The position numbers and the translations under genes are program-made. Below are positions 41,730 through 44,700 of a stretch of DNA of 64,000 nt, one piece after another (position 1 is the stretch's first letter; each line of letters opens with the position of its first letter). A model generated the notes under the pieces. That model did not search any database, was not told the DNA's origin, and saw only the letters and a program-made list of their open reading frames with translations. Source of the DNA: Candidatus Omnitrophota bacterium (GTDB lineage Bacteria > Omnitrophota > Gorgyraeia > Tantalellales > Tantalellaceae). The stretch is from NCBI GenBank assembly GCA_049642065.1, contig JBAROK010000027.1, positions 14,398-78,397 of the forward strand, in the 5' to 3' direction.

Positions 41730-44700
41730 TTATGCCCTAGCTAGCATTGTCCTTATATTATCCATTATCGTCCGGAGTTCCTGGGTAGCAAATTGCCCTG
41801 CATCGGGGATAAGCCGTATAACTAAGCTGGCCCTTTCCTTGCCGAAAAGCATACCACGATCCTCTGCAGCAAGCTTCTCATATGAAATCACGTTAGGTAT
41901 TGTCTCATAATACTTTATGAGAGTTCCCCTATCCCAGCCAAGATGTTTACCTATAGCAAAAAGTACCACCTCAAGTAGTGGCAGATACGCAGTTTTGGGG
42001 AATCCTGCGTCATTTACACCCGCTATTGTCGCCCGGCCTTCAAATCCGCTGTAAAATGACATATTATCCTTCTTCGTGACCACAATCAGGTTCTCTGGAT
42101 CTACAGACCCTCTGTCTGGATCCGTGAGATTTGCTACTCTCTGGGCAAGCACCCGGCCTTCACCCTTTATTATCTCAAGATCCTTAAAGAACCTTTTAAG
42201 ATCTTCATTATTGCCTTCCAGGCTGGGTAATACCTCTACGATATCCCTGAGAAGAACGTTAATCTCCCCTTCGCCGATTTCTAGGTCAAGAGCGATAAGC
42301 ACTTTTTTGCCTTTTCCGGAAAAACCGAACAATGAATTTACCAGTTTGCCTATCACTTCCCCTACATTCTTCAATATACCCTTGATGCCAGATGGTCGCG
42401 TCCCTTTAACCTTTTTGCCTACCTCTTGTATCTTGCCGTATTCTACCGGGTAAGCTCTTTCAGCGATTTGAAGTGCTTTACTTGTCGTTTCCGGATCCGA
42501 AAAACACATCGATAGCACTGATTGTTTCATATCCCTAAAATCACCGCTAAGTCCTTTATCCAATAGTTCCGCCATCGGGCCTTCATACATATGTGCCATT
42601 ATCCTGTCAATATACCCGTCAACAAGTTCCTTAAATTCGTAGTGAAGTCGTCCTTTCGCAACCCTTTGAACATCATCATCATTCGGATCATCGCGCAACC
42701 GTACGTCTATAGCTCCTAAAGCCGCACTAGCCAGGCCTGTATTAAAATCATAAGAATTAATCAACTCTCTCAATTCTATATCGTTCAGTCTTTCCGCATT
42801 AGCTTTACCTATACCCAATCGTTCCGCGTAGAAAGTCTTAATGTCTTCTTTAAGATCACTGTATATCTTCTTTAGCCCGTCATCCTCCAGGCCGTATGCA
42901 CCCTTGTATGCGCTAGACGCGCTTACAAGCGCGAAGGTCATTGCCAGCTTCCTTTTCAGTAAAGCGTTCGAACCCACAAGAAAAAACTGCGTTTGCATAC
43001 CCTTGGTCTTTGGGTCATTTTCATTAAGGAATTTTCCCGTCCACGGGTCTATTGAAAGACCGCGTCTGCCTCCTCTTATCCATGGTTTACCGGGCACTTC
43101 CTTGGAATAGGTAAGACTACTGGGCCTTGAGCTACCAAAATACAAAATCGAAAACAAGAATAATGCTTCTTGCATTTGGTCTCCCGCCGCGGTTATATTA
43201 AAATCCCTCATATCAGCTATACCAAGATTCTCTAACTTTGCAGCTAAAAGCCATAGTATTGGATACGGAGCAGGAGGTACTCTGATGAACCGTTCACCGC
43301 TTTGCCTCGAATTAGACCTATCCAGCTCGTGAGGCGTCTTGGTCCTTGAAATATAATTCATCACTTTAGCGCGGAACCTGAAATCTTGGCCATCATCCAT
43401 CAGCAATTCTTCGGAAGGCCTGTAATAATCAAGCCCAAGAGTGGGATAATCCATTGTAAGCGTCTCGAGTACTGTTAAAGCCGGTATGACTTCTTCATTC
43501 ATACGCTTTGTGAAGTCATCTGAAATACACTCTTTTGAAGTTATCTCTTCGATAAGCAACAGTTTTACATACGCCTGGGCCCCTACAGAAAGACCTGAAA
43601 GATCAAGATCATCATACACATCATCTACCATCGACAAAAACATCTCTCCATTTTCGCCAAGACTATGATAGACCGGAACACCTGGGAACTTTGAGGCGCT
43701 TTCTGCTATAAATTCTCTTTCAGCTTTTCTGCAAAATTCTACTGCTTCATCATTATCCATTCCAAGGCCAAAAGACTTGAAATATAAAAGCGTACCGTCC
43801 AAGTCCTCTTGAGCGCAAGTATGTGCGATTATCCTGATATCCTCCCTGTCCTTCAGACCAAACCTGCGGAAGTTAAGTGCCGTAGCCCTGCCACTATTAC
43901 TCGCACATGCCATTGCCACCAGAAATATAGAAGCGATGTGATACTGAGGATCAAATCCGAAATTCTTGAAGTTAGTAGCGACTCCTGACGCGCTTTCTTC
44001 CGCAGCGAGAAGAGCTATACCGGTTACTACAGTCGCCTCTTCTTCACCTTTGGTGGGATCAAGCCCAAACTCCTTAAAATATACCGCAGTACCTAAACCG
44101 TTCTGTCTGGCGCAGAGATTAGCCACATTGATTACATGCTGTTTATCCCTCAAACCGAAATTCCTGAAATACCGGGCCGTATTCTCGCCGTCCAGTTCAG
44201 CGCAATCCTCGGCAATCTCCAGGATCACGTCTTCGTCCCGCACTGGGTCAAAACCTAAGTTCTCAAAATCTTTTGCCACGCTATCCGGCAAAGAAGTTGA
44301 ACAGGTTAATGCTACTGTTTTTATTTCATCCGCATACCTTGCTGAATCCAGGTTAAATATCTTGAATCCTGCCATGGTCTTTTTGGGAGCCTGTACCGCG
44401 CTAAGCAAAGCTACTTCAACCCTGATATGCGCGTATTCATCAGACTGAAGGTCTATCCCAAACTCATCGAACAATGCTCTTTTTATTGAGTCATACTCCC
44501 TAATAATGAGACTTGCTTTTGAGGCCATATCAAGCGCTGCTTCTTTGATAGCTTGTTTTTCCCCGGAGCCCTCAAAAGACGCATAACCCGCATCAATCCC
44601 ATATTTTCGGATTTTATAAACTGTAATATTAACTAAAAGATGCCATCCCATGCTTAAAAGAACTGCGTAAGACGGCACGCCAGCAAATAATATTGCCAAG

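Follow-up and report, generated by a model that had tools for sequence, protein, structure and literature searches.

A tandem 30–36-residue repeat predicted to fold as an alpha-solenoid in a membrane protein of Omnitrophota

The 1293-residue protein encoded at 41730..45611 on the reverse strand of the window, the 64,000-nucleotide stretch of a Candidatus Omnitrophota bacterium genome analysed here, carries seven tandem repeats of 30–36 residues after its transmembrane block. Sequence searches give good support to the repeat being an undescribed family of its own, and structure prediction likewise supports well an array folded as an alpha-solenoid of stacked three-helix units that would form one elongated domain. 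It would seem reasonably likely that this solenoid acts as a cytoplasmic, membrane-proximal protein-binding scaffold, of which both the topology and the binding function are inferred.

The repeat array and the protein that carries it

The 1293-residue ORF was taken from the ORF list with its translation; all features below are on the reverse strand. Its NCBI counterpart, 'MAG: hypothetical protein WBD00_01830 [Candidatus Omnitrophota bacterium]' (P0001), is 100% identical over 99% of the query and is annotated as 8 residues shorter, at 1285 residues. The window locus is a three-gene cluster of large proteins. The N-module (residues 1-184, 45060..45611) is common to the 1678-residue paralogue and to P0003, to which it is 38% identical by BLASTP, and starts with a hydrophobic segment at residues 7-31 (...VVWA/SP) that hydropathy suggests to be a signal or anchor, with putative signal-peptide cleavage. 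The transmembrane block (residues 222-333, 44613..44948), located by a Kyte-Doolittle scan, contains hydrophobic stretches at 248-274 and at 287-323, the latter extending to ~333, which probably form a hairpin, together with a weaker, amphipathic segment at 222-242. Beyond the array lies a post-repeat domain of ~420 residues (649-1065, 42417..43667) with BLASTP relatives in P0005/P0155, P0015, P0024 and P0245, the match to P0005/P0155 covering residues 659-1094 at 29% identity (E 2e-34); it received no Pfam, PDB-sequence or Foldseek assignment. The C-module (residues 1066-1293, 41733..42416) is again common to the paralogue and to P0003 (31% identity) and is alpha/beta, strand and helix alternating in the AF2 secondary structure. 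With a 949-residue AF2 model, Foldseek gave no significant match to either the post-repeat domain or the C-module; a RecA/RAD51-paralogue-like signal over ~140 residues (probability 0.66-0.75, E 0.6) was too weak and was not relied on.

The original prediction had proposed seven or eight tandem repeats of 30–36 residues at 43692-44399, corresponding to residues 405-640, each opening with an aromatic-basic-x-F-G-L/F-D-P motif followed by I..IA..CA...G..TA.YF. Both the motif and the repeats were borne out, the repeats as seven clear units plus caps by HMM tests against shuffled sequences. With the register chosen such that each unit ends in ...F-x-x-F-G-[LF], seven significant tandem units, each of 30–36 residues, occupy residues 387-616 (43764-44453) and follow the pattern D..xI.xIAxxCAxxxGxxTAxYFxNFGL. 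Mapped in register together with caps at residues 354-386 and 617-648, they give an array (43668-44552) slightly longer than the interval first flagged.

The periodicity is significant, the leave-one-out HMM scores reaching 30 bits against a best score of 5.4 bits over all 1000 shuffles of the 1293-residue sequence. Units 3 (residues 455-487, 44151..44249), 4 (488-517, 44061..44150), 5 (518-553, 43953..44060), 6 (554-586, 43854..43952) and 7 (587-616, 43764..43853) score 24.9, 30.0, 26.2, 22.1 and 23.6 bits, respectively, unit 5 having a longer first helix, of 24 residues in the AF2 model. Units 1 (387-421, 44349..44453) and 2 (422-454, 44250..44348) are divergent and score 7.2 and 5.0 bits, against null maxima of 3.3 and 4.3 bits. 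A family HMM, a unit profile from 198 units that come mostly from other proteins, scores units 1 to 7 at 18.4, 16.0, 44.4, 44.4, 25.9, 30.5 and 34.5 bits; its 7 domains amount to 216.5 bits overall, with independent E-values from 3e-5 to 2.5e-13, and it matched no other six-frame ORF of the window. Ahead of unit 1 lies a degenerate unit or cap (U0; residues 354-386, 44454..44552) ending in ...LFDEFGI, which is marginal by sequence with a leave-one-out score of -0.3 bits, attained by 25 of the 1000 shuffles; it is helical and runs on into the solenoid in the AF2 model, and is conserved in orthologues. At the other end a capping helix (residues 617-648, 43668..43763; GMDNDEAVEFCRKAEREF...), also conserved in orthologues, is modelled as one 20-residue helix closing the solenoid.

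The periodicity is visible at the protein level only. Tandem Repeats Finder found nothing in the DNA, whose sole repeats are 14-17-nt fragments from FxNFG codons, and BLASTP of the protein against itself gave no internal HSPs with units this short and diverged, hence the use of HMM tests. In orthologues at 70%, 42% and 33% identity the unit number (7 plus caps) is unchanged and in register, and units at the same position align better (mean score 62) than units at different positions (43), implying constraint on surface residues. The array is acidic, with 32 K+R against 48 D+E and a pI of 4.75 (4.87 in the 70% orthologue).

Predicted fold and searches against named families

The AF2 model of residues 345-660 is all-alpha with a pLDDT of 93.5 and a pTM of 0.86, values to be read in the light of an alignment of 6 sequences and of the tendency of idealised repeats to be modelled over-confidently. 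Helices of 14 and 6 residues followed by a helical turn of 4 recur 7 times, flanked by capping helices, and the 949-residue model gives matching secondary structure for the array. The helical, regular three-helix units agree with the alpha-solenoid reading offered originally. In the proposed fold the first helix (D..xI.xIAxxCA) would lead through a tight N-G-x-G turn into the 6-residue helix (TAxYF) and the one-turn helix (xNFG), with a short L-D-P linker closing the unit. The conserved small and aliphatic residues (I, A, C, A, T, A, F, F, G, L) would pack adjacent units together, and the variable positions between them would make up the exposed surface. Information in the family HMM is high at I6, I9, A10, C13, A14, T21, F25, F28, G29, L30 and D2, and low at positions 3-5, 15-17, 19-20 and 23.

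Consistent with the earlier view that the signature could not be assigned, Pfam and NCBIfam returned no family, either for the protein at E<=1 or for the array at E<=10, a PDB sequence search gave no match to the array, and Foldseek found no match to the array model in the PDB or BFVD at E<=1e-3, the top PDB matches being designed helical repeats only (TM<0.3, E>=0.01). Neither protein nor array reached the gathering score of the HEAT/ARM families (PF02985, PF13646, PF00514). TPR/Sel1 (PF13424, PF08238 and others), ankyrin (PF00023, PF12796) and TALE (PF03377) gave no Pfam match, with hhalign probabilities of 0.07%, 0.07% and 0.17% against consensus TPR, consensus ankyrin and TALE sequences; the model is also without strand, and ankyrin matches to it in BFVD had E>=0.3. 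PUF, PPR and mTERF were absent from Pfam matches (protein E<=1, array E<=10) and from the top 50 PDB Foldseek matches, and DUF4116 (PF13475, cut-off 24.9 bits) did not match the array at E<=10. Chlamydial arrays of 12-18 units likewise gave no DUF4116, HEAT, TPR, ARM, Sel1, PUF or ANK match.

As a positive control, HEAT_2 was found at E 1e-131 in the Omnitrophota protein P0249, which shares a 90%-identity cluster with P0024; P0024 itself, with 6 units of the window-type repeat, has no HEAT match. The NCBI label 'HEAT repeat domain-containing protein' on relatives of P0024 was therefore put down to genuine HEAT repeats elsewhere in those giants. Matches of DUF2666, DUF6127, KDGP_aldolase, DnaB_bind and UBAP-1_UBA2 to long arrays or to the idealised consensus were rejected as artefacts of repetition: they are sums of sub-threshold matches in which 0 stretches pass alone except for KDGP_aldolase, itself below its cut-off. 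A literature search by literal motif strings found nothing.

Members beyond the window and their architectures

The repeat had been put forward as novel. It is unnamed in domain databases, but it is not private to this protein: a unit-profile search of 1.84 billion representatives found at least 165 clusters (50% identity) at E<=1e-3, chiefly from environmental Chlamydiota, and 97 at E<=1e-10, with about 1437 units. The window protein ranked 2nd of the 165 matches, with a query profile that contained its own units; homology search with a di-unit alignment gave 3 short fragments only. The commonest members are 'hypothetical proteins' of ~1000-1300 residues from environmental (amoeba-associated) Chlamydiota, with Omnitrophota proteins making up a smaller share. 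A separate genome survey is biased towards Chlamydiota by its use of a narrower, chlamydial alignment. The family-wide period is ~30 residues and the unit number runs from 4 to 42. Chlamydial units follow the variant pattern IAKLAAQQNGxGTSxYIxNYG; at least 109 of the array proteins or clusters have a chlamydial C-terminal domain in common, and one Waddliaceae genome holds ten or more paralogues. Three proteins have PPDK/PEP-utilizer and LMW phosphatase domains fused to the array, and in one chlamydial member an N-terminal F-box is directly followed by 8 units; such fusions to unrelated domains are as expected for an adaptor module. Chlamydial members have no signal peptide.

Omnitrophota arrays lie after the TM block and before the conserved ~420-residue domain in three different architectures, and no Omnitrophota-type architecture examined has the array without this domain. 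The giant protein P0245, also from Omnitrophota, has an N-terminal soluble region followed by two TM helices, the array and then a Ser/Thr kinase. The neighbouring 1678-residue paralogue matches the window protein by BLASTP only at the N-module (residues 1-184, 41%) and at the C-module (1066-1293, 59%; residues 1450-1678 of the paralogue). It does contain, as originally proposed, a duplicated membrane module (residues 1066-1212 against 1236-1382, 54% identity, E 4e-59), but this lies just before the C-module and so not in a strictly equivalent place to the array. From these matches and the duplication, variable centres between conserved ends is a fair description; the cassette-like diversification also proposed holds to that extent, but the array is not free-standing and travels with the ~420-residue domain.

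Proposed role, alternatives and known repeat systems

As the first soluble domain past the TM block, the array would most likely lie on the cytoplasmic side, leading into the ~420-residue domain and then the C-terminal alpha/beta module. K/R-rich loops after residues 273 and 333 suggest this placement by the positive-inside rule; the P0245 layout, with its kinase beyond the array, supports it, as do the chlamydial members, which have no signal peptide and in one case an F-box. If the weak segment at 222-242 were to span the membrane, the array would instead be periplasmic. Alpha-solenoids are the commonest route to custom binding surfaces, in cells and parasites alike. A rigid scaffold of this kind would position the downstream domains or bring a partner to them, like the repeats in F-box and other adaptors; in F-box proteins of chlamydiae, target specificity is ascribed to the attached repeats (PMC4209131).

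The array could instead be a divergent member of the described helical repeats (HEAT/ARM, TPR/Sel1, PUF, ankyrin, TALE, mTERF, DUF4116), which its 30–36-residue period and its helical hairpin-plus-turn unit do resemble. DUF4116, elsewhere modelled as an alpha-solenoid (PMC8078820), comes nearest: giant-virus DUF4116 proteins are the best BFVD matches by probability (0.97-0.98, TM 0.40-0.52), and an idealised six-unit consensus matches the family faintly (E 0.0012, 18.8 bits, below the cut-off of 24.9). Such membership is nonetheless unlikely, since no more than 5 of the 116 di-units give any match to DUF4116 (best E 0.06), the Foldseek E-values are non-significant in both PDB and BFVD, Pfam is empty for protein and array, even the arrays of 12-18 units match no listed helical family, P0024 lacks a HEAT match where genuine HEAT repeats in its cluster reach E 1e-131, and the hhalign probabilities against the TALE, TPR and ankyrin sequences are all <1%.

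Two further readings concern function. That the array reads nucleic acid, one unit per base, in the manner of TALE, PUF or PPR would fit a ~33-residue period and tandem units with variable positions at fixed places, and the chlamydial variant is locally like the helix-G-x-S/T-helix motif of DUF6364 (28 of 116 di-units, best E 1e-6). The window units do not match DUF6364, however, and the acidity of the array and of its 70% orthologue, the anchoring of the protein in the membrane and the absence of TALE similarity by hhalign, of PUF, PPR or TAL_effector matches in Pfam and of such structures among the top 50 Foldseek matches make it very improbable. An inert spacer or stalk, without a ligand of its own, that sets the distance of the C-terminal domains from the membrane would account for an array always directly after the TM block in Omnitrophota proteins and for the constant 7 units plus caps in orthologues from 33% to 70% identity, and a purely structural role would fit the data behind the scaffold reading. 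We consider it quite unlikely given the better conservation of same-position units between orthologues, which points to constraint on surface residues, the combination with an F-box in Chlamydiota, in which substrate binding normally falls to the repeat, and the range of 4 to 42 units in other members, which suits diversification of binding.

A tentative, rather doubtful extension of the protein-binding scaffold is that the solenoid binds host or prey proteins in two host-dependent PVC lineages and has expanded in Chlamydiota as putative secreted effectors. Omnitrophota have very few cultured representatives, and their large proteins are suspected in host or prey interaction. On the host- or prey-binding reading, Chlamydiota would have large paralogous families including F-box fusions and Omnitrophota membrane-anchored and giant proteins. 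If it were true, the Omnitrophota carriers, including the three-gene cluster of the window, would be host-interaction machinery of ultra-small bacteria, and the presence of the repeat in both lineages would mark either descent from a common PVC ancestor or gene transfer between symbionts that live together. The finding reveals no new mechanism. Naming a solenoid family does make hundreds of 'hypothetical proteins' interpretable: the repeat would give a handle on the large unannotated protein set of amoeba-associated chlamydiae (at least 109 clusters), and it ties that set to the membrane and giant proteins of Omnitrophota. The unit alignment is directly usable for a Pfam-style model, and the regular, confidently modelled unit may interest repeat-protein engineers.

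HEAT and ARM repeats are protein-binding platforms, and the array resembles them as a solenoid scaffold whose three-helix unit recalls ARM H1-H2-H3. Their units are, however, ~40-47 residues against 30-33 here, the array has its own signature, IAxxCA...NGxGTAxYFxNFGL, and Foldseek found no HEAT or ARM structure at TM>0.3; HEAT repeats are present in Omnitrophota giant proteins (bioRxiv 10.64898/2026.06.07.730766). TPR/Sel1 repeats, often fused to F-boxes in chlamydial effector families (PMC4209131), have a similar period of ~34 residues and small residues (A, G) at helix-packing positions, but comprise two equal antiparallel helices per 34-36 residues in place of one long and two very short helices, and the Sel1 structures 6ok3 and 6deh matched only at Foldseek E>1 and TM about 0.2. 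TALE repeats likewise have a 33-residue period, a helix, a short G-containing loop and a second helix, and unit-specific variable positions; they form a basic DNA-binding superhelix, unlike the acidic array, and have no sequence similarity to it. The designed repeats 5cwl, 7ue2 and 8g9j (DHRs), which head the PDB Foldseek matches (E 0.01-0.5, TM 0.14-0.2), indicate that the geometry of the array is very regular and idealised; as these are artificial proteins matched with poor E and TM values, the resemblance is evolutionarily and functionally meaningless. DUF4116, an as yet uncharacterised repeat, occurs in giant viruses, in protists and in some bacteria. Like the array it is a short helical repeat of ~30 residues found in amoeba-associated genomes, and the closest fold-level resemblance to the array is to its Homavirus proteins in BFVD (TM 0.40-0.52), but at a Foldseek E of 0.39. 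The first helix of the array is presumably some four residues longer than in the DUF4116 consensus. No structure of DUF4116 has been solved, and it has been modelled, as has the array here, as an alpha-solenoid (PMC8078820).

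Repeat units and predicted fold

The repeat array lies in a 1293-aa protein identified from the ORF list and translation (41730-45611, minus strand), window positions 43692-44399 corresponding to aa 405-640. The array that had been flagged is real: eight F-x-x-F-G-[LFI] motifs at 30-36-residue spacing are visible in the protein sequence. With the register chosen so that the last residues of every unit are FG[LF], there are seven clear units, U1-U7 (aa 387-616), preceded in the same register by a marginal unit, U0 (aa 354-386), and with a cap (aa 617-648) C-terminal to U7, all on the minus strand, such that the array is slightly longer than the flagged interval. 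The units align to the pattern D(P)..D..xI.xIAxxCAxxxGxxTAxYFxNFGL, with a single conserved cysteine in each. The periodicity is significant, with leave-one-out HMM scores of 22-30 bits for U3-U7 and 5-7 bits for U1-U2, against a ceiling of 5.4 bits across 1000 shuffled versions of the protein; U0 was not significant in this test. An HMM built mostly from units of other proteins found seven domains in the protein (independent E 3e-5 to 2.5e-13) and matched no other six-frame ORF of the window. No tandem repeat was found in the DNA, so the unit duplications are old.

Structure prediction bore out the suggested resemblance to alpha-solenoid repeats. The AlphaFold2 model of aa 345-660, based on a shallow six-sequence alignment of orthologous arrays, is helical throughout (pLDDT 93.5, pTM 0.86) with regular units, each made up of two helices, of 14 and 6 residues, and a helical turn of 4 residues, and both ends of the solenoid are capped by longer helices. 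The secondary structure of the array was the same in a second model, which spanned aa 345-1293. Information in the family HMM is highest at D2, I6, I9, A10, C13, A14, T21, F25, F28, G29 and L30, while positions 3-5, 15-17, 19-20 and 23 are almost unconstrained, suggesting a packed core and a variable surface. A helical repeat solenoid is well supported as the predicted fold, within a shallow-alignment prediction.

Domain context and topology in Omnitrophota

The gene is the third in a run of large co-directional genes (25724-45611, minus strand), after those for a 1678-aa protein (25724-30760, minus strand) and a 3486-aa protein (31075-41535, minus strand); in the latter, the sole confident domain is a cyclic-nucleotide-binding one (aa 1058-1146). 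Genes around the run are of ordinary chromosomal kinds, encoding anthranilate synthase, LytB, a B12-radical SAM enzyme, PAP2, a SLOG/LOG-like protein, a glycosyltransferase, MscS and a class-II aldolase. Those for the B12-binding radical SAM enzyme, PAP2 phosphatase and SLOG cluster-4 (LOG-like) protein are directly upstream of the 1293-aa gene on the same strand, at higher window coordinates (45794-48118, minus strand). At NCBI the 1293-aa protein corresponds, with 100% identity, to 'MAG: hypothetical protein WBD00_01830 [Candidatus Omnitrophota bacterium]', whose annotation is 8 residues shorter. Full-length orthologues at 70%, 42% and 33% identity retain the seven units and caps in register, and units at the same position are more alike across orthologues than those at different positions (mean score 62 versus 43).

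The 1678-aa paralogue does have a duplicated membrane module, as was predicted (aa 1066-1212 versus 1236-1382, 54% identity, E 4e-59). No relation could be detected between this module, of approximately 147 aa, and the 1293-aa protein's TM block. Both for this paralogue and for P0003, an 1818-aa protein from a JGI metagenome, likeness to the window protein is confined to the N-module (aa 1-184) and C-module (aa 1066-1293). In P0003 these modules are at aa 9-182 and 1584-1818, and the centre lacks a repeat array and contains HTH domains of XRE type, giving a third architecture in which the same conserved ends enclose very different middles. The idea of a cassette-like centre holds in that the paralogue shares only these end modules, but the array recurs together with the approximately 420-aa post-repeat domain (aa 649-1065) in three architectures. 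These are the window type (N-module, TM block, array, post-repeat domain, C-module); P0005, with 25 units and the post-repeat domain further downstream; and P0245, a giant Omnitrophota protein of more than 5253 aa in which a soluble N-terminus and two TM helices precede seven units of the repeat and then the post-repeat domain. P0024, a fragment of this giant, adds a Ser/Thr kinase, and its sister fragments contain HEAT repeats. A short motif, 'EYLLHEIICP', is present in P0024 (aa ~700-1467), where the kinase follows the motif region, and in P0003 (aa ~520-560), and looks like a conserved element in large Omnitrophota proteins.

The window protein begins with a signal-like hydrophobic segment ending in VVWA/SP. 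Hydropathy shows further strong segments at aa 248-274 and 287-333, the latter of a length that would allow a hairpin. The K/R-rich stretches after aa 273 and aa 333 favour placing the N-module in the periplasm and the array in the cytoplasm, in agreement with the N-in two-TM arrangement and kinase in P0245, the lack of signal peptides in chlamydial members and the one conserved cysteine per unit.

A family shared with Chlamydiota

The novelty originally claimed stands in so far as the repeat was not found in Pfam, NCBIfam or the PDB, but it is not private to this protein. The proposed database search, made with a 33-position profile from 14 units against 1.84 billion representative proteins, matched 165 proteins at E<=1e-3, of which 97 passed E<=1e-10 and 25 passed E<=1e-30; the most matched stretches in any one of them, 34, were in a protein of 6703 aa. 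P0004 (6703 aa; L033, an ENA metagenome contig, 10001-30112) has 42 units in several blocks and faint AAA/P-loop signals; its contig also encodes the anaerobe-type proteins ThyX, rubrerythrin, desulfoferrodoxin and hybrid-cluster protein. Iterating the HMM over the matched proteins gave approximately 1437 units in 151 proteins, with the consensus EDKEAIIEIAKLCAKQNGEGTAKYFKNFGL and a modal period of 30 aa. When the repeats were masked, 109 proteins shared one unrelated C-terminal region (~650 aa in the chlamydial relatives P0006, P0009 and P0014) with a conserved '...DDPIDLLLCGTDVSGSCQRLDGDPS.NKGLLGYLMDGKNRLLAIKD...' stretch; the window protein's own group comprised 9 proteins and the remainder small groups or singletons. 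Neither Pfam nor NCBIfam gave a match for this C-terminal region, which is a candidate for an uncharacterised effector domain.

Scanning genomes with a chlamydial-type di-unit alignment gave 31 loci, almost all in MAGs of Parachlamydiales, Parachlamydiaceae, Waddliaceae and 'Chlamydiae bacterium'. The repeat is common to Chlamydiota and Omnitrophota, which the literature groups in the PVC superphylum. On two contigs of the Waddliaceae MAG MFD09671 (CAWGIG010000003/4; L003-L005, L010, L011, L013, L014, L017, L018 and L021) at least ten paralogous repeat genes lie within a few tens of kb, suggesting local tandem expansion of the gene family. The chlamydial di-unit also has a weak tblastn match in a Candidatus Dorea intestinavium gut MAG (Firmicutes; L031, DXHJ01000104.1, 313-393; 56% identity across query residues 3-50, E 2e-5), in all likelihood a spurious one or a lone isolated unit. 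A protein search with one chlamydial member found 136 relatives, all named members being 'hypothetical protein', including the entry from cultured Estrella lausannensis. In P0073 an N-terminal F-box is directly followed by eight units; the F-box partners in a paper on chlamydial gene families are only LRR and TPR (PMC4209131). Another fusion involves PPDK/PEP-utilizer and low-molecular-weight phosphatase. The repeat's motif strings were not found in any paper in a literature search.

Likely role and relation to known repeats

Repeat arrays are taken to confer target specificity on F-box proteins (PMC4209131) and, by analogy, the array is most likely a rigid membrane-proximal binding scaffold, which would offer its variable surface to a partner protein or keep the domains downstream of it in position. 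Foldseek with the larger model left those domains unassigned. A helical repeat might alternatively read nucleic acid, though the acidity of the array (pI 4.75) makes this unlikely; with lower probability than binding, the array may be purely a spacer. A binding scaffold remains the preferred reading.

The repeat itself is real, the family well supported and unnamed in the libraries searched. As the original prediction anticipated, its signature could not be assigned to a known repeat family by sequence, profile or structure. There were no Pfam or NCBIfam families for the window protein at E<=1 and none in Pfam for the array alone at E<=10; PDB sequence searches with the array, array profile and unit profile gave nothing under E 0.1. 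Foldseek of the array model against the PDB gave no match at E<=1e-3, the best being de novo designed helical repeat proteins (TM<0.3), and hhalign of the family profile against TALE, consensus-TPR and consensus-ankyrin sequences gave probabilities <1%. As a positive control, HEAT repeats of Omnitrophota proteins in the 90%-identity cluster of P0024 reach E 1e-131 in Pfam, while P0024, with six units of the present repeat, has no HEAT match.

The chlamydial variant IAKLAAQQNGxGTSxYIxNYG, of the di-unit alignment A3, locally matches Pfam DUF6364 (28/116 di-units, with a best E of 1e-6, over profile positions ~10-35 of 70), which may reflect remote homology or convergent evolution of a helix-G-x-S/T-helix motif; none of the window array's own units match. 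The nearest known family found is Pfam DUF4116, itself uncharacterised, which has no solved structure and has been modelled as an alpha-solenoid (PMC8078820). Its giant-virus members are the top BFVD matches by probability (0.97-0.98, TM 0.40-0.52), but with E 0.39. Sequence matches to DUF4116 are limited to the idealised repeat consensus, at 18.8 bits and under the cut-off, and 5/116 di-units (best E 0.06), and the repeat is not placed in that family, though the two may be akin in fold. Structurally the repeat is of a very familiar kind, but as a sequence family it is new.
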